Assembly (NCBI GenBank): GCA_902764145.1 | Contig: CACWUS010000007.1 | Coordinates: forward strand, 6,654 to 70,653 | Source: an uncultured Erysipelotrichaceae bacterium | GTDB taxonomy: Bacteria; Bacillota_I; Bacilli_A; RF39; UBA660 | Length of the DNA stretch: 64,000 nt | Reading direction: 5' to 3' | Shown here: one piece after another, positions 38,236 to 48,913 of the stretch | Layout: each line of letters starts with the position of its first letter | Numbering within the stretch: the first letter of the stretch is position 1 | Program-made: the position numbers and the translations under genes | The notes under the pieces: model-generated | Told to the model about the DNA's origin: nothing | The model's database searches: none | The model's input: only the letters and a program-made list of their open reading frames with translations

Positions 38236-39918
38236 ATGAAAAAGAAATTTTTATTAAGCGTATTAACCTTATTCATTTTTTCTGTGTTTATGGTAAGTGT
38301 TAACGCTGCTGGGCCTGAATCAGCATTAGGAATTACATATGAAATAAAAGCAAAAACACCAGATTCAGTACCTGCTGTTGGTAGTCAAATGTATGGAACT
38401 GTTACTAATAAATTTGATTTAAGTAAAATAACATTCAATACATCAACAGGATCTACAGAAGCAGGCGAAACAAATTTAAGAAAGATTATAGTTGGTAATT
38501 TAAATGCAACTGAAGCCGGTACTGCGACTAGCAAAACAACAGATGCAGAAAAATTAGCTGCAGCATTTTCAAAATGGTATACAGCATATTGTTTAGATGG
38601 AACACAAGGTTATCCATCATATGGTATTTATTCAAATGAAAACTATGTAACAAGTTATATAGCTTATCAAACTGCAGTTGCTTCATCTGATGCAGCAGGA
38701 GTTCAAACAAATGCTGTAGGAATGTTAAATTCAATTGTAAGAGCTGCTATATTAAATGATTCATCTGTTCAAGATAAAATTAAAAATGTAACTGGACATG
38801 TTGATAGTGTGACTATAAATATGATGACAGGAGATTATACTTTAGTTGATAAGGAAGTTGCAACAGCATTATCAGATTTAAATGATAACACAAAAACAAT
38901 ACCTCAAAGATCATTTAAAGTAAATGTTAATAAAATCACATTTATGGATAGTGATACAATGACACCAACTGTTATTGAATTTTCTGATTATGAATTAACA
39001 GTTAGCCCAATTAATATTTTATTTGATAAATATGTTGTTAATGATAGTACAGATAAAGTTAGTACAAATAGTAAATCATATACAAAAGCTCTTTGGATAA
39101 TTGAACATACTTATCCATCACTAGATATTGAAACAGCATTAACTGAAGCTGGAGTAAATTATGATACTTTAAAAACTCAAATAGCAACACTTTATAGTAA
39201 AACTGAAGAAAGTGATATAACTGTTTTTACAGAAAATGCAGTATATGGAACTATTCAATATGCAATATGGAGTGTTACAGGTGGTAGTCCAAAAGGTACT
39301 GTATTTACTGGAGTAGCAAATAGTACTGAATTAGATACTTTATTTAAATATTTAGTGCAAGATAGAACAATCTCAAATGATTATGCATCTGGAATGTCAT
39401 TTAAAAACACTCTTGAAGAAGTAAGAGTTGGAGATGGAAAAGAACTTGTTGGAGAAGAAAATGGTGTATATAAATATGGACCATATTCAGCAAAATATGA
39501 TGCATTAGATGGTGAAAATATTAATGTTACTATTACTACAGAAGATGCAGATGGAGTTAAAATAGTAGATAAAGATGGAAATGAAATTACTGAAATTGAA
39601 CCAGGACAAGAATTTTATATTTTAATTCCTAAAAAAGCTAAACTTGGAAACGTAACAATCAAACTAGATGCAAAGGTTAGTGTATTTGTTCCTGATGGAC
39701 TTAGAGGTAGAATATATCAACCAATATTTGTACTAGGACAAAATGTTATGTCTGGTGGAAAAATTGATACAAAAACAATTAGTGCTAAATTTGATGTAAC
39801 AATTAATGCTAAAACTGGAGTTGAAGATATAGCTGTGTTATTAATGGTAACATTAGTTGCATTCTCACTTGGATATTTAGTATTAAGTTATAAAGCTAAA
39901 CCAGTTGAATTAAATTAA
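38236..39918 (+). CDS. Surface protein with putative internal-thioester (TQXA-type) adhesin domain and C-terminal sorting-like signal
   Basis: 560 aa. Signal peptide ...VSVNA/AG. Cys context WYTAYCLDG, Gln context GTIQYAIWSV. C-terminus NAKTG + hydrophobic helix + KAKP. Confidence 0.6.
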   Translation: MKKKFLLSVLTLFIFSVFMVSVNAAGPESALGITYEIKAKTPDSVPAVGSQMYGTVTNKFDLSKITFNTSTGSTEAGETNLRKIIVGNLNATEAGTATSKTTDAEKLAAAFSKWYTAYCLDGTQGYPSYGIYSNENYVTSYIAYQTAVASSDAAGVQTNAVGMLNSIVRAAILNDSSVQDKIKNVTGHVDSVTINMMTGDYTLVDKEVATALSDLNDNTKTIPQRSFKVNVNKITFMDSDTMTPTVIEFSDYELTVSPINILFDKYVVNDSTDKVSTNSKSYTKALWIIEHTYPSLDIETALTEAGVNYDTLKTQIATLYSKTEESDITVFTENAVYGTIQYAIWSVTGGSPKGTVFTGVANSTELDTLFKYLVQDRTISNDYASGMSFKNTLEEVRVGDGKELVGEENGVYKYGPYSAKYDALDGENINVTITTEDADGVKIVDKDGNEITEIEPGQEFYILIPKKAKLGNVTIKLDAKVSVFVPDGLRGRIYQPIFVLGQNVMSGGKIDTKTISAKFDVTINAKTGVEDIAVLLMVTLVAFSLGYLVLSYKAKPVELN

Positions 39919-39996: not shown

Positions 39997-40674
39997 ATGG
40001 ATGATATATTAGAATATCTTTCAAATAAATTAGAAGATTTTGATATTAAAAAATTAATATTTCCAACTATATTATTATTAATGTATATTGCAGGCTTTGT
40101 ATACTTTTTAACTATAATAAAAAATATAAATAAAAAAATTGATAAAAAGGAATTTGTTCATGAAGAAAGTCATACCATTATTCAAGATGATATTTATGTA
40201 GATGTAAAAGGTTCTGTTCAAAATCCCGGTGTATATAAATTAGATAGTAATTCGAGAGTTATTGATGCAATTAAGGCTTCTGGAGGAATAACTGAAGAAG
40301 CAAATACTAGATTTATAAACTTATCTAAACAATTAAATGATGGCGATGTAATAGTGGTATATTCTAAAAAAGAAATAAATGATGCTAAAAAAGATAATAC
40401 TGTTTATGTAGAAGTTCCTTGTGTGTGTGAAGAGGTTAAAAATGATGCTTGTTTTAATGAAGAAAAGAAAGAAGTAACAAATGAAAAAGTAAATATTAAT
40501 ACATCTACAATTGAAGAATTAAAAACATTAACTGGAATAGGGGAAGCAAAAGCAAATGCAATAATTGAATATAGAAATAAAAATGGTAATTTTAAAAACA
40601 TTGAAGATATAAAGAATGTAAGTGGTATAAGTGAAAGTGTTTTCGTTAAAATTAAGGAAAATATTACTATCTGA
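39997..40674 (+). CDS. comEA: Competence DNA receptor ComEA
   Basis: 225 aa. N-terminal TM, SLBB-like segment (VDVKGSVQNPGVYKL), and C-terminal helix-hairpin-helix pair (LKTLTGIGEAKANAIIEYR...VSGISESVF). Confidence 0.9.
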   Translation: MDDILEYLSNKLEDFDIKKLIFPTILLLMYIAGFVYFLTIIKNINKKIDKKEFVHEESHTIIQDDIYVDVKGSVQNPGVYKLDSNSRVIDAIKASGGITEEANTRFINLSKQLNDGDVIVVYSKKEINDAKKDNTVYVEVPCVCEEVKNDACFNEEKKEVTNEKVNINTSTIEELKTLTGIGEAKANAIIEYRNKNGNFKNIEDIKNVSGISESVFVKIKENITI

Positions 40675-42721
40675 TTTGTTCTTTATAATACTATTAATAT
40701 TCTCTTTTGTTTATTTAATTATTTATCATTTTTTATTTGACATTAGTAAAATCTATAATTATGATACTAATTATTTTGAAATTAAAATAAATAATTATTA
40801 TATCGATGGAGATAAATTAACACTTGAATTTGATAATTTAGTAGGTATGTATTATTTTAAAAATGAAAATGAAATAAAGTCATTTAAATTAAAATATTCA
40901 TTAGGAGATATTATAAGAATTAATGGTAATTTATCATTTCCAAATAATAATACAATACCTAATACTTTTAATTATAAAAATTATTTATATCATAAGAATA
41001 TTGAATATATTTTACATATTGATAATTTTAGTTTAATTAGTAAAAATAAAAATATTTTTTTAAAGATTAAAAACTATATTTATAAGAGAATAGATAATAT
41101 AAAATATAATGACTATTTATATGCTTTTATTTTAGGTAAAAGTTCAAACATTGATAAAAGTGCTTATAATAATTACAAGACTAATGGAATTACTCATTTA
41201 TTTGCTTTATCTGGGCTTCATGTTTCATTATTTTCAAGTATAATTTTGTCATTATTAAAAAGAATTAATACTAATGAAAAAGTATCATTTATAATAACAA
41301 GTTTATTTCTAATATTTTTTTCTTTCATAGCATCTTTTGCACCATCTATTTTAAGAGCAACTATATTTTTTATAATATCAGAAATTAACAAAATATATTA
41401 TTTTTATATAAAGCCAAAAAATATTTTATATTTAACTTTTACAACTTTAATATTTATTAATCCACATTATATATTTAATATGGGTTTTATATTATCATTT
41501 ACTATTACATTTTTTATTTTGTTATATAATGAAAATAATAATAAAAGTTCAATTTTAAAAATAAGTGTTATTTCATTTTTAAGTAGTCTACCAATAATAA
41601 TAAACATGTCTTATGAAATTAATATTATTGGATTTTTTAATAACTTATTTTTTATACCATATGTTTCATATATTGTATTCCCGTTTTCTTTATTATGTTT
41701 GGTATTTAATAAATTATCTCATATATTAAATTTTACTATTATTATTATGGAATTTATTTCTAAAATAAGTTCAAATTTATTAAATATTACAATATGTTTT
41801 TCAAAAATATCATTTTCTTTAATAATAGTATATTATTTCTTATTAATATTAATTATAAAAAAGATTAAAAAAGCAAGAATTTTGTTTATCATACTTATTA
41901 TATTTATGTATTTAAAACCATATCTAAATAAAGAATATATAGTATATTTTAATGATGTAAAACAAGGAGATAGTATTTTGATGGTTTTAAATAATAAAAG
42001 TATTTTAATAGATACTGGAGGAATAACAACATATCATAACAATGAATGGTCCAAAAGAAATAGAGATTATAATCTAATGGTTGATAGTTTAATACCATTT
42101 TATAAAAGCGTTGGATTAAAACAAATTGATTATTTGATTCTAAGTCATGGAGATTATGATCATATGGGTGAAGCAATTAATTTAGTTAATAATTTTAAAG
42201 TAGAGAAAGTAATATTTAATTGTGGACCATATAACGATTTGGAAAAAGAATTAATAAAAGTTTTAGATAAAAAGAAAATTAAATATTACTCATGTATTAA
42301 AGAATTAAATATAGACAATAATAAACTCTATTTCTTACAAACAAAAGAATATGATAATGAAAATGATAATAGTAATGTTATTTATACAGAAATAAATGGT
42401 TACAAATTTATGTTTATGGGAGATGCGAGTGTAACTGCTGAAAAAGAAATATTAAATAAATATAATCCACATAATATAGATGTATTAAAAGTAGGTCATC
42501 ATGGAAGTAGGACAAGTTCTAGTGAAGATTTTATTAATAAAATAAATCCTAGATATTCAATAATTAGAATTAGTGTGGGTAAGAATAATAGGTATGGACA
42601 TCCAGATAAAGAAGTACTAAATAATTTAGAAAATTCAAAAATATATAGAACAGATGAAGATGGAAGTGTTATGTTTAAGATTAAAAATAATAAATTAAAA
42701 GTTGAGACTTGTAGTCCATAG
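40631..42721 (+). CDS. comEC: Competence DNA channel ComEC/Rec2 with C-terminal MBL domain
   Basis: 696 aa, polytopic. Competence-domain motif GITHLFALSGLHVS. MBL motifs ILIDTGG, LILSHGDYDHMGE, LKVGHHGSRTSS. Only non-ATG starts are available (GTG 40631 overlaps comEA by 44 nt), so the start is uncertain. Confidence 0.88.
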   Translation: MKVFSLKLRKILLSDLFFIILLIFSFVYLIIYHFLFDISKIYNYDTNYFEIKINNYYIDGDKLTLEFDNLVGMYYFKNENEIKSFKLKYSLGDIIRINGNLSFPNNNTIPNTFNYKNYLYHKNIEYILHIDNFSLISKNKNIFLKIKNYIYKRIDNIKYNDYLYAFILGKSSNIDKSAYNNYKTNGITHLFALSGLHVSLFSSIILSLLKRINTNEKVSFIITSLFLIFFSFIASFAPSILRATIFFIISEINKIYYFYIKPKNILYLTFTTLIFINPHYIFNMGFILSFTITFFILLYNENNNKSSILKISVISFLSSLPIIINMSYEINIIGFFNNLFFIPYVSYIVFPFSLLCLVFNKLSHILNFTIIIMEFISKISSNLLNITICFSKISFSLIIVYYFLLILIIKKIKKARILFIILIIFMYLKPYLNKEYIVYFNDVKQGDSILMVLNNKSILIDTGGITTYHNNEWSKRNRDYNLMVDSLIPFYKSVGLKQIDYLILSHGDYDHMGEAINLVNNFKVEKVIFNCGPYNDLEKELIKVLDKKKIKYYSCIKELNIDNNKLYFLQTKEYDNENDNSNVIYTEINGYKFMFMGDASVTAEKEILNKYNPHNIDVLKVGHHGSRTSSSEDFINKINPRYSIIRISVGKNNRYGHPDKEVLNNLENSKIYRTDEDGSVMFKIKNNKLKVETCSP

Positions 42722-42725
42722 AAAG
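42146..42725 (+). repeat. Direct repeat copy A (functional comEC 3' end)
   Basis: About 95% identical by eye to 44271..44795. Homology ends at ...GTAGTCCATAGAAAG in both copies. Confidence 0.85.
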
Positions 42726-42733
42726 GAGTATAT

Positions 42734-43624
42734 ATGAATTATTATAATGAGATAAAAGAGACATTAATAAAAAGTGAAATATACGACAGAGCAAAAGATT
42801 ATTCGAAAGATAGACATAAAGTTATTGTATATTTTGAAACTGGAAAACTATTAAGTGAAGCAGGGAAAGAATATGGTAAAAATATAATTAAACAATACTC
42901 TGAAAACTTAATAATTGAAGTTGGTAAAAAATATAATGAAAGAAATCTTAGATATATGAGGCAATTTTATGAAATTTTCTCAAGTATAAAATGGAACCCA
43001 ATGGGTTCCAAATTAAGTTGGAGTCATTTTAGAGAATTGTTAATAGTCAAAAACATTGATGCAATCATGTATTATATTGATATATGTGAAAGAAATAATT
43101 TGACAAGAAGACAATTACAAGAACGAATAAAAAACAAGGAATATGATAGATTAAGTAATGAAACTAAAAATAAGCTAATTACTAAAGAGCAATTAAATGT
43201 CAACGATTTAGTGCCTAATCCTATAATTATAAAAACAAATATTTTAAAAGAAGAATTATCAGAATATGCATTAAAACAGGCTATATTAAATAGCATTGAT
43301 GAGTTTTTAAGGCAGTTAGGTATTGGTTTTACCTATGTTGGTAATGAATACAAAATCAAAATTGGCGATAGATATAATTATATTGATTTATTACTATATA
43401 ACATAAAATATAAGTGCTATGTAGTAGTAGAATTAAAAGTAACTGAATTAAAGAAAGAACATACAGGTCAAATTATGACATACATGAATTTTATTAATAA
43501 GAATGTTAAAACGATAGAAGAAAATGATACAGTTGGTATTATTATATGTAAGCAAGACAATGAATATGTAATTAAATATTGTTCGGATGATAGAATAATT
43601 GCTAGAGAATATGAATTGTTGTGA
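42734..43624 (+). CDS. DUF1016/YhcG-like PD-(D/E)XK nuclease-fold protein
   Basis: 296 aa. C-terminal core YIDLLLYNIKYKCYVVVELKVTELK (D...E-x-K) preceded by a helical N-domain. RBS AAAGGAG. Confidence 0.65.
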   Translation: MNYYNEIKETLIKSEIYDRAKDYSKDRHKVIVYFETGKLLSEAGKEYGKNIIKQYSENLIIEVGKKYNERNLRYMRQFYEIFSSIKWNPMGSKLSWSHFRELLIVKNIDAIMYYIDICERNNLTRRQLQERIKNKEYDRLSNETKNKLITKEQLNVNDLVPNPIIIKTNILKEELSEYALKQAILNSIDEFLRQLGIGFTYVGNEYKIKIGDRYNYIDLLLYNIKYKCYVVVELKVTELKKEHTGQIMTYMNFINKNVKTIEENDTVGIIICKQDNEYVIKYCSDDRIIAREYELL

Positions 43625-43677
43625 TATAATAAATAAATCATTTAGAATTAGTAATTTGAAAGTGAGTTGAATCCTAT

Positions 43678-44220
43678 ATGCTTGATATCAATATAATATT
43701 TAATATTTTATTAAGTGATAATATTTCATTATATGAAAATGAACTTTTTGAATTAATACCAGAACTAAAGTATGAAAAAGGGTTTGAACAAAAAAGTGAA
43801 TGGCATTGTTTTGATGTATGGGATCATACATTAGCTACTATAAATGCATGTGATATGAATCAGGAAGATAGATTAGTAATGCTCTTACATGATATTGGCA
43901 AGCCATTTTCATTTCAAGACTATGGAAATATAAGACACTTTAAAGGTCATGCTAAAAAATCTGCTGAAATTGCAAAGATAGTTTTAGATAGATTTAATAT
44001 TAATAACGAAATAAAAAACACGTTATTAAAATTAATAGAATATCATTCATGTAGAATAGATGTTGATGACATAAATATAAATAACGTTAAATTTTATAAA
44101 AGATTATTAAAAATTCAAATGTGTGATGCAAAAGGTTATGAAGAGGAGCATTCAAAAAAAATAATGGAACAACTAAATTATACTCGAAAAAAAATAAATT
44201 TATTAAAAGAGGGCTTATAA
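43678..44220 (+). CDS. Stand-alone HD-domain protein resembling the HD region of CCA-adding/poly(A) polymerase family enzymes
   Basis: 180 aa: WHCFDVWDHTLATI...LLHDIGKP...FKGHAKKSAEIA. No nucleotidyltransferase head domain. Confidence 0.6.
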   Translation: MLDINIIFNILLSDNISLYENELFELIPELKYEKGFEQKSEWHCFDVWDHTLATINACDMNQEDRLVMLLHDIGKPFSFQDYGNIRHFKGHAKKSAEIAKIVLDRFNINNEIKNTLLKLIEYHSCRIDVDDININNVKFYKRLLKIQMCDAKGYEEEHSKKIMEQLNYTRKKINLLKEGL

Positions 44221-44233
44221 ATAAGCTTTTTTT
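44213..44233 (+). terminator. Intrinsic terminator
   Basis: GCTTAT-aa-ATAAGC followed by TTTTTTT. Confidence 0.65.
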
Positions 44234-44270
44234 CTTTGTTTAAATCTGTATGCACAAACGTATATCACCA

Positions 44271-44795
44271 CATGGAGATTATGATCATATGGGTGAAGCA
44301 ATTAATTTAGTTAATAATTTTAAGGTAGGGAAAGTTATATTCAATTGTGGACCATATAACGATTTGGAAAAAGAATTAATAAAAGTTTTAGATAAAAAGA
44401 AAACTAAGTATTATTCATGTATTAAAGAATTAAATATAGACAATAATAAACTCTATTTCTTACAAACAAAAGAATATGATAATGAAAATGATAATAGTAA
44501 TGTTATTTATATAGAATTTAATAATTACAAATTTATGTTTATGGGAGATGCATCTATTACAACAGAAACAGAAATATTAAATAAATATAATCTACATAAT
44601 ATAGATGTATTAAAAGTAGGTCATCATGGAAGTAGGACAAGTTCTAGTGAAGATTTTATTAATAAAATAAATCCTAGATATTCAATAATTAGAATCTAAA
44701 AAACTCAAAAATATATAGAACAGATATAGATGGCAGTATTATGTTTAAAATTAAAAATAATAAATTAAAAATTGAGACTTGTAGTCCATAGAAAG
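44271..44795 (+). pseudogene. Degenerate duplicate of the comEC 3' end (direct repeat copy B)
   Basis: ORF 44250..44699 translates to ...HGDYDHMGEAINLVNNFK...VGHHGSRTSSSEDFINKINPRYSIIRI*. An internal deletion of about 55 nt relative to copy A gives a premature stop. The out-of-frame tail still aligns to the comEC end. Confidence 0.85.
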
Positions 44796-44838
44796 TGGTT
44801 CTACACGAAACATGATATTAAAATAATAGACAAACTTG

Positions 44839-44847
44839 TGATATAAT
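44839..44847 (+). promoter_or_regulatory. Extended -10 promoter element upstream of the Fic gene
   Basis: TGaTATAAT within TTGTGATATAATAA. The identical 14-mer occurs at 43619-43632 upstream of the HD gene. Confidence 0.45.
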
Positions 44848-44866
44848 AATTACAGGATGTGATAAT

Positions 44867-45889
44867 ATGGATAAAATTAGACAATTCTTAGAAAGTAACA
44901 ATTATTATAATATGTATGAAGAGTCTGATTTATTTGAAAAATATATCCAAGATTTAACTCCTGATGATGTTATGAAAATAGCAATTTCTTTAAATAAAAT
45001 GCTACGTAATAAAGAATATGAAGAAGTAATCTCTAATAATATGATTGCTGGAGAATTAACAGCTCCAACAAGTGACATTAGAAATGATATTATTCAAAAT
45101 CTTCTTACTGCTCTAAAAAAAATGAATGATAATAAATTAAGAGCAGAGTTGATATATTACACATTTATAAATTTACATATGTTTAATGATGGTAACGGTA
45201 GAACAGCGAGATTATTATATGGGATTGTTTCTGGGAATATTGAAGGTGAAGAATGGTATATACATTCAGATGATTCTATGCATAAGTATGATGGTGACTT
45301 TTGCAGTCATGTTGGAATATTAGATGAGAGTGAAGTAAATTATAATTCAAATAGAATGTTATCACATGTTGTAGAACCATATATAAGTAAATATCCAACT
45401 TTATCAAGTAAAAATATGTTTCAAACATATTCCACAGTAGCACATAGTGAATCATTTCCATTATGTGAGATTATATCAAAGGATATTTTAAAGCAATTAA
45501 CTACTGAAGAAATAAATAAGATAGGAATAATATTACAAGATAATGAAAGTCTATATTCAATAGCAGGATTAACCATGTTAATAATAACTGATAAGATTGG
45601 TCAATTAAATGAGTGGATTAAAAGAGATAGTGAGAATACTGAAATATGCTTTCAAAACGGATTTGGAGAAGATTGGATGCGACATCGACTATCTTTCAAT
45701 TTAATAAAAAATAAAGATTTAATATTAAAATGGAAAGTTGATGATTGGAAAAATGTTATACTAATAGGTAACAATTTAAAATTAATGCAGTTTAATAATA
45801 TGAATGAAATGTTTTTAAACAAATCTAATGAAAAACAAATGCAAGAAGAAACAGGGCAACCTGATACTCAAAACCATAAAAGATTGTAA
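44867..45889 (+). CDS. Fic/DOC-family protein (putative AMPylase-type toxin/effector)
   Basis: 340 aa with the canonical Fic motif HMFNDGNGRTARLL. I saw no (S/T)xxxE(G/N) inhibitory helix motif. Confidence 0.8.
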   Translation: MDKIRQFLESNNYYNMYEESDLFEKYIQDLTPDDVMKIAISLNKMLRNKEYEEVISNNMIAGELTAPTSDIRNDIIQNLLTALKKMNDNKLRAELIYYTFINLHMFNDGNGRTARLLYGIVSGNIEGEEWYIHSDDSMHKYDGDFCSHVGILDESEVNYNSNRMLSHVVEPYISKYPTLSSKNMFQTYSTVAHSESFPLCEIISKDILKQLTTEEINKIGIILQDNESLYSIAGLTMLIITDKIGQLNEWIKRDSENTEICFQNGFGEDWMRHRLSFNLIKNKDLILKWKVDDWKNVILIGNNLKLMQFNNMNEMFLNKSNEKQMQEETGQPDTQNHKRL

Positions 45890-45917
45890 TATAAATATAT
45901 TTAATAGGGTGATATGT

Positions 45918-46460
45918 ATGGCAAAAATATTAATAAGACCATTAGTAAAAAAAGATGTAGAAGATGCAGCTAAAATTAGAATCAATGGATGGAAAACAGC
46001 ATATAAAGGAATTATTAATGATAATCACTTAAATTCTTTGAATGTAGAAGAACAAATAAAAAAATTCGAAAAATATGTAGGTAAAGATAATTTTATTGTT
46101 GCAGTTGAAGATGAAAAAGTATTAGGATTTTGTAGATTCAGTTATGATAATTCTTCTTCATCAAATATAGATTATGTTGATTGTGAATTAAATGCGCTCT
46201 ATGTGCACCCTGAATTTAAAGGAAATGGTATAGGAACTAAGTTATTTAAATATGTATTAAATGTTCTTTGTAATTTGAATAAAAAAAGTATGATTTTATG
46301 GTGTTTAGCTGATAATGTAAATTCTATAAATTTTTATAAACACATGGGCGGAAAAATCAAAGAATCAAAAATAGCAACTATTGGTGAAGAAAATTATAAA
46401 GAAGTTGGTATAGTATTTGATATAAAAGAATTATGTAGTAATAGTAGTATAAAAGTATAA
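45918..46460 (+). CDS. GNAT-family N-acetyltransferase
   Basis: ORF 45828 trimmed to Met31. 180 aa with acetyl-CoA motif LYVHPEFKGNGIGTKLF. Confidence 0.8.
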   Translation: MAKILIRPLVKKDVEDAAKIRINGWKTAYKGIINDNHLNSLNVEEQIKKFEKYVGKDNFIVAVEDEKVLGFCRFSYDNSSSSNIDYVDCELNALYVHPEFKGNGIGTKLFKYVLNVLCNLNKKSMILWCLADNVNSINFYKHMGGKIKESKIATIGEENYKEVGIVFDIKELCSNSSIKV

Positions 46461-46480
46461 TAATTTAAGGTGTGAATAAT

Positions 46481-47308
46481 ATGGATTTATTAAAAAGAAT
46501 ACTAGATTGTAGCGAAGAAGAAATTGATTTGATAATTGAAAATGTCATTAAAGAATTAGATATTAATTCCATTAAAATCGATAGATTAGGATTTCTAGAT
46601 TATGGAAAATCTAATAGTGTTTTTAAAGGGTTTATACCACTTAAAACTAGAATTAAATATGCAAATTATAATATTGAAGACTATGGAATGGAGAGTACAG
46701 ATTTTATTTATGAGTTTGCCCATTTTATAAAAAAACATAATATTAATAACAAAGCGTCTTTAATTTATAATTTGGAATATTTTATTAATAGTTATTTTGG
46801 CTTTCCAGGTAAAAGTAGTAGAGAAACAATATTTAATGATATAGCATGGAAAACTACTAAAAGTGATGAAGAATACTTTGATGCTTTGAGTAATAATAAA
46901 ATAGGTGATTTAAAAGGTACAGGCTCAGCCCAGTGCACAGAAAGAAGTGCTCTAGCTGAACAAATACTAAGTGCATTTGGTATAGAAACTTATTATTGCA
47001 TGGGATGTGTTGATTTAGATGATAGACAAGAAGGACATTGTTTTAATATTGTTAAAAGAAAAAATGATTATGCTTTGCTAGATTATAGTATTCCAGTAAT
47101 GTCTTATAACTCTGAAGGTAAAATAATAGCTTATTATCCTTTTATTGGTATTTTAAGTAATGAAGAATTTTTAGACTTTATTAATAATGGTACTATTAAA
47201 TCTTTTGATGATTATTATATGAATGGAAGAGAAAAACAAAAAAAAGACAGTCAAAGATTATATGTGGTTGGAAAATATGAAATTAATAAAGCAAATATGT
47301 TAATATAA
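46481..47308 (+). CDS. Hypothetical protein with transglutaminase/papain-like Cys-His-Asp pattern (tentative)
   Basis: ORF 46472 trimmed to Met4 (ATG behind AAGGTG). GTGSAQCTERSALAEQIL...EGHCFNIV...ALLDYS resembles the transglutaminase-like cysteine peptidase core. Confidence 0.45.
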   Translation: MDLLKRILDCSEEEIDLIIENVIKELDINSIKIDRLGFLDYGKSNSVFKGFIPLKTRIKYANYNIEDYGMESTDFIYEFAHFIKKHNINNKASLIYNLEYFINSYFGFPGKSSRETIFNDIAWKTTKSDEEYFDALSNNKIGDLKGTGSAQCTERSALAEQILSAFGIETYYCMGCVDLDDRQEGHCFNIVKRKNDYALLDYSIPVMSYNSEGKIIAYYPFIGILSNEEFLDFINNGTIKSFDDYYMNGREKQKKDSQRLYVVGKYEINKANMLI

Positions 47309-47370
47309 TGCAACAAAATTAAAATATTGTATAAGATATTATGTACACACTTGGTGTGATTATATAGATT

Positions 47371-47398
47371 GAGATACTTTTAAGTATCTCTTTGTTTT
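47371..47398 (+). terminator. Intrinsic terminator
   Basis: GAGATACTT-tt-AAGTATCTC followed by TTTGTTTT. Confidence 0.7.
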
Positions 47399-47430
47399 AC
47401 AAATAAATAAAATTGATTTATAATTGAATT

Positions 47431-48324
47431 ATGGAAAAAGAGGATTTTTTTAAAATTAGTGTAATTAAAGATTTTAGTGATTTTATTAAATCTAAAAATT
47501 ATTCAGAACACACATATAATTCATATTTAAATGATTTATACTATTTTTATGATTATATAAAAAAAGATTTGATTAAAGTAGATGAAAATGATATAAGAAA
47601 ATATTTAGAATATTTAAACACTAAAAAAGAAAAAGCAAGTTCTGTTAGAAGAAAAATTAGTTCTTTTAAAACATTTTATAAGTTCTTATATTTAAATAAT
47701 TATATTGATAAAAAAGATTATCCTCTTGTTAAAATAGCATATCCAAAACTAGAAAAAAAATTACCAAAATTTGTATATTATAATGATTTACTTGAAATAA
47801 TTAATGAATCTTATAGAGATAAAGATGGGATTCGCGATAGATTAATTATTGAAATGCTTTATGCTACTGGAGTACGTGTAAGTGAACTTATTAACATAAA
47901 ATATGAAGATATTGATTTTAATAATAGACGTATTAGAGTTTGTGGAAAAGGTAATAAAGAAAGAATAGTTTATTATGGTGAATATGCAGAAGATGTGTTA
48001 AAAGAATATATGTCTACTCATAAGAAAAATGATTATGGATATGTTTTTACTAATTATAAAGGTGAACAAATAACAGATAGAGGAATTAGATATATAATTG
48101 ATAATATTATGAAAAAATTATCTGTTAAAGTCCATGTAACACCACATGTATTAAGACATACATTTGCAACAGATATGTTAAATAATGGATGTGATATTAA
48201 AATAGTTCAGGAGTTACTTGGTCATTCAAGTTTAAGAACAACAGAAGTATATACACATGTAACAAATGAAAGATTAAAAGAGGTCTACTATAAATGCTTT
48301 CCAAGGAGGGATAAAGATGAGTAA
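47431..48324 (+). CDS. Xer-type tyrosine site-specific recombinase
   Basis: 297 aa. SAM-like N-domain. Catalytic residues in ATGVRVSEL (R), HVLRHTFAT (H-x-x-R), LLGHSSLRTTEVYTHV (H...Y). Confidence 0.88.
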   Translation: MEKEDFFKISVIKDFSDFIKSKNYSEHTYNSYLNDLYYFYDYIKKDLIKVDENDIRKYLEYLNTKKEKASSVRRKISSFKTFYKFLYLNNYIDKKDYPLVKIAYPKLEKKLPKFVYYNDLLEIINESYRDKDGIRDRLIIEMLYATGVRVSELINIKYEDIDFNNRRIRVCGKGNKERIVYYGEYAEDVLKEYMSTHKKNDYGYVFTNYKGEQITDRGIRYIIDNIMKKLSVKVHVTPHVLRHTFATDMLNNGCDIKIVQELLGHSSLRTTEVYTHVTNERLKEVYYKCFPRRDKDE

Positions 48325-48913
48325 ATTATATTATAGATATGGAGCTATGAATTCTGGAAAGACTACATTACTTTTACAAGTAGCACATAATTATGAAGAA
48401 AGAGGAATGAAAGTTTTAATATTAAAACCCAAAGTTGACACTAAAGGTGAAGATAAAATAGTTACTAGAATAGGTCTTAAAAGAAAAGTTGATCATTTAG
48501 TTTCAAAAGATGAAAATTTAGGAAATTATTTGAAAAACGTTCCAAATGATATATCATGTATTCTTGTAGATGAATCACAATTTTTAACAAGAGATCAAGT
48601 TGATGAACTTTTCATGTTTACTAAACTACGTGATATAGCAGTAATATGTTACGGACTTAGAAGTGATTTTAGGACACTTGCATTTCCTGGAAGCTTAAGA
48701 TTATTTGAAGTTGCAGATGTTTTAGAAGAATTATATACTATTTGTAGATGTGGAAAAAGAGCTAAATTCAATGGTAGAATAGTTAATGGTAAGTTTACAT
48801 CTGATGGTGAGCAAGTCGCTATTGATGGAGAAAATAAAGTAACATATGAATCTTTATGTGGCAAATGTTATTTAGAAAAAGTACTAAATATTACTAGTGA
48901 AAGTGTTGATTAA
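48317..48913 (+). CDS. tdk: Thymidine kinase
   Basis: 198 aa. P-loop GAMNSGKTT, VDESQF, and zinc ribbon CRCGKRA...CGKCY. Overlaps the recombinase gene by 8 nt. Confidence 0.93.
   Translation: MSKLYYRYGAMNSGKTTLLLQVAHNYEERGMKVLILKPKVDTKGEDKIVTRIGLKRKVDHLVSKDENLGNYLKNVPNDISCILVDESQFLTRDQVDELFMFTKLRDIAVICYGLRSDFRTLAFPGSLRLFEVADVLEELYTICRCGKRAKFNGRIVNGKFTSDGEQVAIDGENKVTYESLCGKCYLEKVLNITSESVD

Follow-up and report, generated by a model that had tools for sequence, protein, structure and literature searches.

We analyzed a 64,000-nucleotide (nt) stretch of DNA from an uncultured Erysipelotrichaceae bacterium (contig CACWUS010000007.1, positions 6,654 to 70,653; this whole stretch is "the window", numbered from its first letter), in which the 3′ end of comEC, the gene for the universal DNA-import channel, occurs twice, on either side of two other genes. 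On balance, we think that the 2.1 kb from 42146 to 44270 are an integrase-less cassette lodged in the attachment site of a temperate phage family inside comEC, and that its birth and transfer are linked to these phages. The cassette comprises, in this order, a surrogate comEC 3′ end, a yhcG gene, an HD-domain gene, a terminator and a 27-nt half-site. Judged by its sequence, the junction upstream of the second comEC 3′ end is probably an attR-type scar, because the cassette ends in what resembles a phage-type left half of attP (attP and attB denote the phage and bacterial attachment sites; attL and attR, the left and right junctions after integration). comEC stays intact because the cassette begins at the crossover point with a complete replacement 3′ end. 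The observations below force the view that each such unit stretches from one serine-integrase crossover point to the next, which explains why a comEC 3′ end stands at its beginning and an attP left half at its end. The features concerned are:

40631 to 42721, + strand: comEC, intact, 696 amino acids (aa), composed of a lineage-specific 5′ part that reaches to 42145 and a 3′ part that is copy A (Pfam Competence and Lactamase_B)
42124 to 42170, + strand: attB-type site within comEC (..IDYLILS/HGDYDHMG..), with the probable crossover dinucleotide CA at 42146 to 42147
42146 to 42725, + strand: copy A, a "mobile-type" comEC 3′ end and the first element of the cassette (repeat alignment)
42734 to 43624, + strand: YhcG/DUF1016 PD-(D/E)XK nuclease-fold gene, 296 aa, cargo (PF17761, PF06250)
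43678 to 44220, + strand: stand-alone HD-domain gene, 180 aa, independent cargo (PF01966, 30.8 bits)
44206 to 44240, + strand: terminator-like hairpin, 12-bp stem and U-run, closing the cargo (-9.3 kcal/mol)
44244 to 44270, + strand: T1 half-site ATCTGTATGCACAAACGTATATCACCA, putative left half (P arm) of a large-serine-integrase attP (conservation, arm matches)
44271 to 44795, + strand: copy B, a displaced comEC 3′ end starting at the crossover CA; a pseudogene in the window strain (attR-type junction with the half-site)

Repeated comEC 3′ ends in the window and in related species

A preliminary description of this DNA had reported an imperfect direct repeat of the comEC 3′ end whose two copies lose homology at the same point. 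A repeat finder, a MAFFT alignment and an exact count confirmed this: copies A and B correspond from the C of the CAT His codon in CATGGAGATTATGATCAT (HGDYDH) to right after CCATAGAAAG, 4 nt beyond the TAG stop. The gapless part (42146 to 42567 versus 44271 to 44692) is 422 nt long, shorter than the roughly 460 nt first given, and holds 22 substitutions (94.8% identity), within the 20 to 25 and close to the 95% estimated earlier. Thirteen of these 22 are bunched at repeat positions 242 to 299. The final 103 nt (42623 to 42725 versus 44693 to 44795) are 91.3% identical, which brings the differences to 31 substitutions and one indel. Copy A forms the last 191 codons of comEC plus 4 nt, in frame with the resident 5′ part, and the whole protein belongs to the ComEC/Rec2 family (NCBIfam TIGR00361, 260 bits versus a cut-off of 190; PF03772 and PF00753 both match).

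Copy B lacks 55 nt of copy A, which creates a stop after ...SIIRI (open reading frame [ORF] 44250 to 44699), as the preliminary description had it. The TTAGAA microhomology proposed there appears only when B is compared with A; measured against the intact B of sister strains, the deletion is 49 nt, with microhomology of at most 1 to 2 nt. It is specific to some strains (contig L089 shares it; L numbers are our handles for loci, contigs and phages). By this comparison the frameshifting deletion is a late, strain-level event, because most same-species contigs carry an intact 183-aa B ORF. The same arrangement is present in more than 10 independent metagenome contigs of the window species, with non-identical copies, which contradicts a misassembly. 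Among these strains, A-like and B-like patches are swapped. Both copies are of the mobile type, and a reading of copy B as the original native end is not supported. In one same-species contig (L085, 6788 to 7616), copy B is followed by a second yhcG gene, 100% identical over 82 aa, which suggests either that some strains carry the cassette in tandem duplicate or that the assembly looped here.

We scanned one genome per species and collected 80 comEC loci from metagenome-assembled genomes (MAGs) of uncultured gut "Bacilli/Tenericutes/Mycoplasmatota", including CAG:1000, CAG:611, CAG:582 and CAG:433 genomes; we take the sampled MAGs to belong to the order RF39. A primary comEC 3′ end was present in 79 loci. 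Twenty of these contigs end within 1.5 kb past comEC, a practical consequence of the repeat, which breaks MAG assemblies at this point, and 59 loci were evaluable. In 37 of the 59 species, one to six additional copies or fragments of the comEC 3′ end follow comEC. Across the 80 loci, 49 secondary copies start exactly at repeat position 1, where the His codon of HGDYDH begins with its C. Ten others form a second class, with starts at repeat positions 429 to 434, at GTTGG.. encoding VGKNNRYGHP. The junction block and breakpoint are common to 27 other species.

Similarity of ComEC to the window protein changes abruptly at the same place. Averaged over 48 orthologues, identity steps from 0.2 to 0.6 up to 0.8 to 0.96 at residue 506 (HGDYDH); locus by locus, the N-terminal part (aa 1 to 505) is 33 to 65% identical and the C-terminal part 72 to 87% in nearly all loci. 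Copy A itself is 75 to 87% identical in amino acids to primary 3′ ends of species whose N-terminal parts stand at 33 to 65%. The genus of the window holds two classes of 3′ end. The mobile class is 75 to 87% identical across species. The other consists of divergent 181-aa ends (distal in L001 and L002, proximal in L008) with 56 to 64% mutual identity; these are as diverged as the N-terminal parts (57 to 65%), and in L001 and L002 they are divergent from position 1 onward. On this comparison the divergent ends are the vertically inherited ones, displaced downstream in L001 and L002. Between L018 and L021, the 3′ part and cargo are more similar than the comEC 5′ part, whereas in the pair L011 and L029 the flanks agree better than the 3′ part, which alone is less similar. 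The identity step, the displaced native ends and the 49 starts at one nucleotide bear out the earlier suggestion of an islet that targets comEC and travels with a surrogate 3′ end.

The second insertion point (window 42575; also L015, L025, L027, L051, L059, L129 and L131), hereafter position 430, has GT(T/G)GG encoding VGKNNRYGHP, and its arrays are built of 150-nt 3′ fragments, five of them consecutive in L025. The deletion in copy B (44692/44693) begins 1 nt from the position-430 crossover point, and copy A carries a 6-nt tandem duplication (42563 to 42574, AATTAG AATTAG, adding residues RI) immediately 5′ of it; this proximity may be coincidence or may mark a fragile or enzyme-visited spot.

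Contig L092 (ena:ERZ27279997:k141_231199), in which comEC leads directly to the Fic gene, would be a same-species empty site, and the preliminary description had proposed to look for such an allele in related genomes. In its positions 1 to 2700, comEA and the 5′ part of comEC come from another genus (97.6% amino acid identity to L073) and are joined to a third 3′-end variant by a switch exactly at position 1, where no k-mer is shared; from the last ~85 nt of comEC on, it matches the Fic-GNAT-xer-tdk backbone of the window species at ~98%. Whereas the left junction looks biological, the right one was probably created by chimeric assembly, so the contig does not serve as an empty site.

Half-sites and comEC-targeting phages

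Directly 5′ of every secondary copy lie about 27 nt that fall into discrete conserved types, all ending in ..CCA and all following the terminator of a cargo gene:

T1 (window type): ..GTATGCAYAAACGTATRTCACCA, half-site arm sequence GTATGCAYAAACGTATRTCACCACA; 12 species
T2: ATTCGACTTACTTTTTGACAATCACCA; 16 species
T3: 2 species
Position-430 type: ..TATGTACTAACTAC..TACCA; 5 species

These blocks are non-coding. Their mean pairwise identity between species is 0.81 for T1 (12 species) and 0.89 for T2, as compared with 0.46 to 0.49 for the next 27 nt upstream and 0.60 for third codon positions of the adjoining copy. At 44250 to 44270 and in other T1 loci, the half-site supplies an in-frame ATG (MHKR(I/M)SP-HGDYDH..), with no Shine-Dalgarno sequence upstream; displaced copies are therefore annotated publicly as separate 183-aa "MBL-fold" (metallo-β-lactamase) genes, a practical point for users of these MAGs.

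Searching viral contigs with T2 plus CATGG, we found the phages to which this sequence belongs. A free siphovirus genome (L102/L105) encodes a CI-like repressor and a 473-aa large serine recombinase (Resolvase/Recombinase/Zn-ribbon). Its attP, 24 nt past the integrase stop, reads ATTCGACTTACT-TTTTGACAATCACCA-CA-TGGAGGTATGTGGTT-AGTAAGTCGAAT (arms N15 from CA) and is of the typical serine-integrase type, with perfect 12-bp inverted arms and its center of symmetry at CA. T2 is the left half of this attP, identical over 27 nt. In the integrated form of the same phage (L103/L104), the comEC 5′ part (..LIIT) is joined at CA to the attP right half, with the integrase gene adjacent. Such attL junctions, at repeat nucleotide 1, were seen in L103, L110, L111, L113 and L139. 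A prophage right end (L101) encodes tail proteins, a holin, an M23 endolysin, a methylase, GmrSD/HNH and morons, and terminates in T2 followed directly by CATGG. Related integrases, 63 to 93% identical, are common in metagenomes, each with an attP that has the same CCA/CA/TGG center and different arms, or with an attL in comEC. In the verified phages, the attP right half abuts the integrase gene, comEC is truncated, and no surrogate 3′ end is present. The sequence past the right end of prophage P0257 was uninformative, since it belongs to a related phage that uses a tyrosine integrase and a different site.

The breakpoint in the arrays is the central dinucleotide of the verified attP and attB sites (..CCA/CA/TGG..), and copy B begins at that CA. 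The T1 block of the window has the same ..TCACCA/CA/TGG center; in ungapped comparison, it agrees with the attP arm of phage L106 at 20 of 27 positions, and the T1 consensus agrees with that of L140 at 21 of 27. The junction coincides with the crossover point of a phage large-serine-integrase attachment site, and homology-facilitated illegitimate recombination, the other route offered in the preliminary description, is not supported. The order of hairpin, T-run and linker ahead of the half-site recurs in other species and in a free phage (L141), in which an endolysin terminator, a T-run and a short linker precede the arm. Of attP, the arrays contain the left half alone: we counted 23 left halves of type T2 and 23 of type T1, as against zero right halves in the appropriate context. 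The exact position-430 attP pattern had no match in viral and metagenome collections; the block resembles attP arms of a more distant serine integrase, 37% identical (L124).

Several other explanations of the junction block fell away. Rfam at E <= 5 gave nothing for a structured RNA or intron end in 40000 to 48500, and the ..CCA end and a TACTAAC-like motif, considered as RNA or intron signals, are explained by att half-sites. T2 as a promoter (TTGACA and TATGAT) was dropped since the block is an attP arm. A dif/Xer site was likewise rejected: the block is not a dif-type palindrome, and the Xer gene is a conserved backbone gene common to L001 to L008.

Phages that enter comEC are known outside this lineage. 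The phi1207.3 prophage, which has a serine recombinase, integrates in comEC (PMC4260502), and GenBank holds further serine-recombinase prophages that disrupt it (Streptococcus pyogenes phi29961, phi29862 and phi29854; S. suis "phi-Ssu..._comEC"), with the annotated phi29961 junction ~6 nt ahead of the codon for the His of HxHxDH. Only these annotated streptococcal records were informative, as GenBank phage matches "from residue 1" are trivial when the query starts there. The "late competence protein" of Geobacillus phage GBSV1 was rejected as a phage-borne 3′ end because it is a complete stand-alone MBL protein. Several Lachnospiraceae "NatCom" phage records (PV036436, PV036434, PV036424 and PV036442, from Faecalimonas, Blautia and Coprococcus) end in a comEC fragment that starts around residue 67 to 73 of the 191-aa tail, a hint of a third phage attachment site in the MBL domain of comEC, in another family.

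Origin and movement of the cassettes

The preliminary description had noted that the cassette holds no recombinase. This is true in cis: Pfam and hidden Markov model (HMM) searches found none between copies A and B, and a six-frame HMM search of the window and L001 to L100 found no serine recombinase in the arrays, nor any within 8 kb in the 59 evaluable species. Phage structural genes are absent from the arrays as well. As an account it was incomplete, since the junction sequence points to a recombinase acting in trans.

The following route would fit. The large serine integrase of the family phages crosses over at the CA of the HGDYDH His codon, an event that alone splits comEC. A cassette could be born in a lysogen by tandem duplication of the segment consisting of attR, 3′ end, downstream genes and terminator, for example at terminator T-runs. 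Two observations are consistent with this: breakpoints lie straight after terminator T-runs (the same cargo cluster, c62, with its terminator leads to a T1 block in L061 but to a T2 block in L069), and some arrays repeat yhcG after successive 3′ copies. For transfer, the prophage would excise via the distal instead of the proximal attR and so load the cassette into the phage (cis-mobilization). In a new lysogen, exit of the phage via the proximal attR would leave the cassette and an intact comEC behind, with the host's own 3′ end shifted one step downstream. In a genome that has acquired a mobile-type 3′ end, the 0.57-kb repeats could then serve RecA-dependent recombination or gene conversion, by which cassettes would be reshuffled, duplicated or deleted. 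Homologous recombination between repeats clearly operates alongside, because A and B patches are exchanged among strains and 3′-end variants are not linked to cargo.

Several results weigh against a phage-linked origin. The left junction of the cassette is attB-like and not a canonical attL, so that neither excision nor integration of the cassette is expected from a canonical large serine integrase alone. Since the phages carry no surrogate and a canonical integrase would not act on an attB-like and an attR-type site, birth and transfer need an additional step that we infer. No phage contig carries a comEC 3′ copy or a cassette (none in IMG/VR), which leaves the hitchhiking step without direct support, and the morons of the few sampled phages have no similarity to array cargo. 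The exact T1 attP or its integrase had no match in viral and metagenome collections, so that the assignment of T1 is one of similarity. L008 reverses the simple order, with a native-type end next to the comEC 5′ part and a mobile-type end in the distal place. Synonymous-codon identity at conserved residues is 0.71 for mobile 3′ ends, as compared with 0.61 for N-terminal parts and 0.57 to 0.67 for native-type ends; with only 0.71 against the 0.61 background, the mobile ends must be old and their similarity is partly due to purifying selection. On these figures the mobile 3′-end clade is shared horizontally yet old. Finally, 3′-end variants show no clustering by cargo type, a pattern that, read from the sequences, shows a strong contribution of homologous recombination.

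An unlikely alternative is that the cassette is what remains of a prophage, an integrative and conjugative element (ICE) or an integrative and mobilizable element that encoded an integrase, contained a surrogate comEC 3′ end from the outset and integrated at HGDYDH, since reduced to the surrogate, two cargo genes and attR; this is the classical route to a cis-mobilizable element (CIME). Tandem target-gene 3′ ends beside decayed elements are its textbook result (PMC5704250; ssrA islands, PMC3146451), and the layout of terminator, linker and half-site is phage-like, as in L141. Against it, none of the verified phages bears a surrogate, their attP right half abutting the integrase and comEC being truncated, and IMG/VR viral contigs encode no comEC 3′ end. 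Nor does the cassette read as a prophage or integrative element: serine recombinases were found near comEC in none of the 59 species, the attP right half is missing and the left junction is attB-like. Decay products of intermediate size were not seen; the units are uniformly 0.6 to 2.5 kb.

We give about the same low probability, if anything slightly less, to a "minimal mobile element" driven by transformation, in which the attR-type junction is an ancient relic inherited with the repeat and present-day spread occurs solely by natural transformation and RecA, with the two comEC 3′ copies as homology arms. The hosts retain comEA and comEC, 3′-end variants are unlinked to cargo type, A and B patches are exchanged among strains, and the same c62 cargo and terminator precede T1 (L061) or T2 (L069), all of which would follow. 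The native-type distal copies, however, at 48 to 56% amino acid identity, are divergent from the first nucleotide and too divergent for RecA; entry into naive genomes therefore needs a site-specific event. Conservation of the half-sites far above neutral sites, and at least four junction types at two exact positions, are also not what such spread would leave.

That YhcG is a free-standing homing-type endonuclease, which cuts comEC at HGDYDH and is copied in with the adjoining 3′ end by break repair, we consider very improbable. It would account for the sharp, co-conversion-like identity step at a conserved catalytic motif, for yhcG being the commonest first gene and for the many frameshifted copies, which are expected after fixation. 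Many cassettes lack yhcG, though (Bro-N/NUDIX, hydrolases, genes of unknown function), the old 3′ end is kept and not replaced, and break repair leaves the phage attP half-site at the junction unexplained. Local tandem duplication or an assembly artifact, with no mobile-element history, scarcely deserves consideration: copies A and B are in direct orientation and 94 to 97% identical, 20 of 79 MAG contigs break just past comEC, a sign of assembler difficulty, and L092 may be chimeric, but more than 10 same-species contigs agree, the junction block and breakpoint recur in 27 other species, and with 31 substitutions and an indel between them, the copies are not a collapsed or looped identical repeat.

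Beyond the phage-linked origin that we favor, a more far-reaching reading is tentative, and we would not yet bet on it. comEC of uncultured gut Bacilli may be an integron-like, integrase-less cassette platform, whose cassettes, each built from a spare comEC tail, one to a few cargo genes, a terminator and a phage attP left half, hyperparasitize serine-integrase phages: they would leave with the phage via the distal attR, stay behind at its proximal exit, preserve or repair comEC and deliver defense-type cargo. In a stronger variant, a cassette circle could recombine with the attL of a prophage, restoring comEC and trapping the prophage.

Cargo genes, comparison with known systems and flanking genes

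The yhcG gene starts 12 nt after the comEC stop, behind AAAGGAG. Its product belongs to the YhcG family (PF17761, 88.1 bits versus 32.8; PF06250, 124 bits versus 32.5), retains a D...E-x-K catalytic motif (YID216LL, VVE231LK233) of a predicted nuclease, and matches the PADLOC candidate PDC-S02 (E = 1e-64). In the literature, DUF1016 is known only as a predicted nuclease fold enriched in restriction-modification (R-M) and inversion loci. yhcG was present in 48 loci, with many frameshifted copies, and was the first gene past comEC in 31 of 56 evaluable species, in each of these without the HD gene. The HD protein was described earlier as CCA-enzyme-like; it is a 180-aa protein with PF01966 only, aligns to the CCA-enzyme model NF008137 over just the HD stretch (29.5 bits, cut-off 451), and has no PADLOC candidate match. 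In no other species locus does the HD gene lie beside yhcG. Homologues 60 to 87% identical are found in further arrays at comEC, where L048 and L129 have the gene together with Bro-N/NUDIX and L131 has it alone; a 47% homologue has a housekeeping miaB-HD-mutS context. As HD homologues recur with other partners or alone, the two genes are independent cargo and not a conserved pair, contrary to the nuclease-HD module first envisaged. We regard YhcG, a defense-candidate nuclease probably co-transcribed with comEC, and the HD protein as likely cargo and not mobility factors.

Array cargo is heterogeneous, mostly single genes with their own terminators, and arrays mix junction types. Bro-N with or without NUDIX was found in 14 loci; other cargo includes HD, DUF488-like, M9-like peptidase, formylglutamate-amidohydrolase-like, AAA, alpha/beta-hydrolase, DUF218, histidine phosphatase and transglutaminase-like genes, and many genes of unknown function.

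Serine-recombinase phage integration into comEC is known already; the literature that we searched holds no description of lineage-wide, integrase-less cassette arrays that each carry a spare comEC tail and a conserved attP half-site. The streptococcal elements (Tn1207.1 and phi1207.3/phi10394.4/phi29961-type prophages) are alike in that serine-recombinase elements target comEC/celB in the same motif region. They differ in being 50 to 60 kb long, with their own recombinases and a disrupted comEC, and neither a surrogate 3′ end nor a cassette array is described for them, whereas the window unit, at 2.1 kb, is free of recombinase genes and does not interrupt comEC.

Accretion and cis-mobilization of integrase-less elements are established for ICEs and CIMEs (ICESt1/ICESt3; Pavlovic 2004, Bellanger 2011; PMC5704250). 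CIMEs, too, are att-bounded integrase-less units that stack at the 3′ end of a target gene and can be moved by a functional element integrating beside them, and the window unit shares with them the lack of a recombinase and the attR-type site. CIMEs use tyrosine integrases and have the full core in both attL and attR; the comEC units have serine-integrase sites, an attB-like left site that is not a canonical attL, the attP left half alone and a 0.15- to 0.57-kb coding surrogate. The Dehalococcoides ssrA islands resemble the arrays in stacking at one conserved single-copy gene, in repeating the target 3′ end and in being old and lineage-wide, and differ in that about half carry an integration module at the site and the repeated piece is short, non-coding transfer-messenger RNA (PMC3146451).

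Integron arrays are alike as ordered series of mostly single, promoter-poor, heterogeneous genes with a repeated recombination site and the newest cassette nearest the insertion point. The comEC arrays have no IntI, attI or attC, their repeat unit being a gene 3′ end plus a phage half-site; we found no attC-like structure and no Rfam match. The sole tyrosine recombinase (47431 to 48324), 2.6 kb downstream, is XerC/D-like and scores 129.7 against the integron-integrase model (cut-off 265). YhcG/DUF1016 genes of type I R-M and defense loci (PDC-S02) are of the same family and occur as hitch-hiking single genes with Fic/DOC and Bro-N/DinD-like genes (PMC9881135); unlike these, the predicted nuclease gene of the window is translationally close-coupled to comEC.

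comEC is strictly kept in these gut bacteria, whose genomes are small, yet its MBL motif region is heavily contested by phages and cassettes. If the cassettes depend on a phage integrase, they would represent (i) a new way for integrase-less DNA to pass between species; (ii) a new type of hotspot for defense candidates (YhcG/PDC-S02, Fic, Bro-N/NUDIX, HD); and (iii) an account of why one third of ComEC is 80 to 96% conserved across genera and the rest 20 to 60%. The half-sites also offer natural attP/attB pairs for a serine-integrase family of an uncultured lineage.

Two further features belong to the locus:

43603 to 43630, + strand: promoter-like site upstream of the HD gene, its -10 of the TG-extended kind (TGATATAAT) (consensus match alone)
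44867 to 47308, + strand: older variable flank between the array and the xer-tdk backbone, with genes for a Fic protein, a GNAT protein and a 278-aa protein of no assigned function (Pfam)

The preliminary description had given the cassette its own promoter and terminator. The TG-extended -10 and the 12-bp hairpin with U-run are indeed there; promoter-like consensus matches in the region are no more numerous than in shuffled sequences. The flank varies among genus-mates L001 to L008, in which Xer and thymidine kinase are conserved at 73 to 84%, and its Fic protein has a weak match to SoFic/PDC-S04. The first 62 nt (45828 to 45889) of the GNAT ORF as listed (45828 to 46460) still lie within the Fic gene; this long start is probably wrong, as public calls start later and give 180 aa. 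Upstream, between pnp and comEA (38236 to 39918), lies a gene whose 560-aa product is secreted, contains a thioester (TED) domain and is anchored in the membrane by its C terminus. This hypervariable surface protein is only 28 to 41% identical among genus-mates, as compared with ~91% for PNPase.

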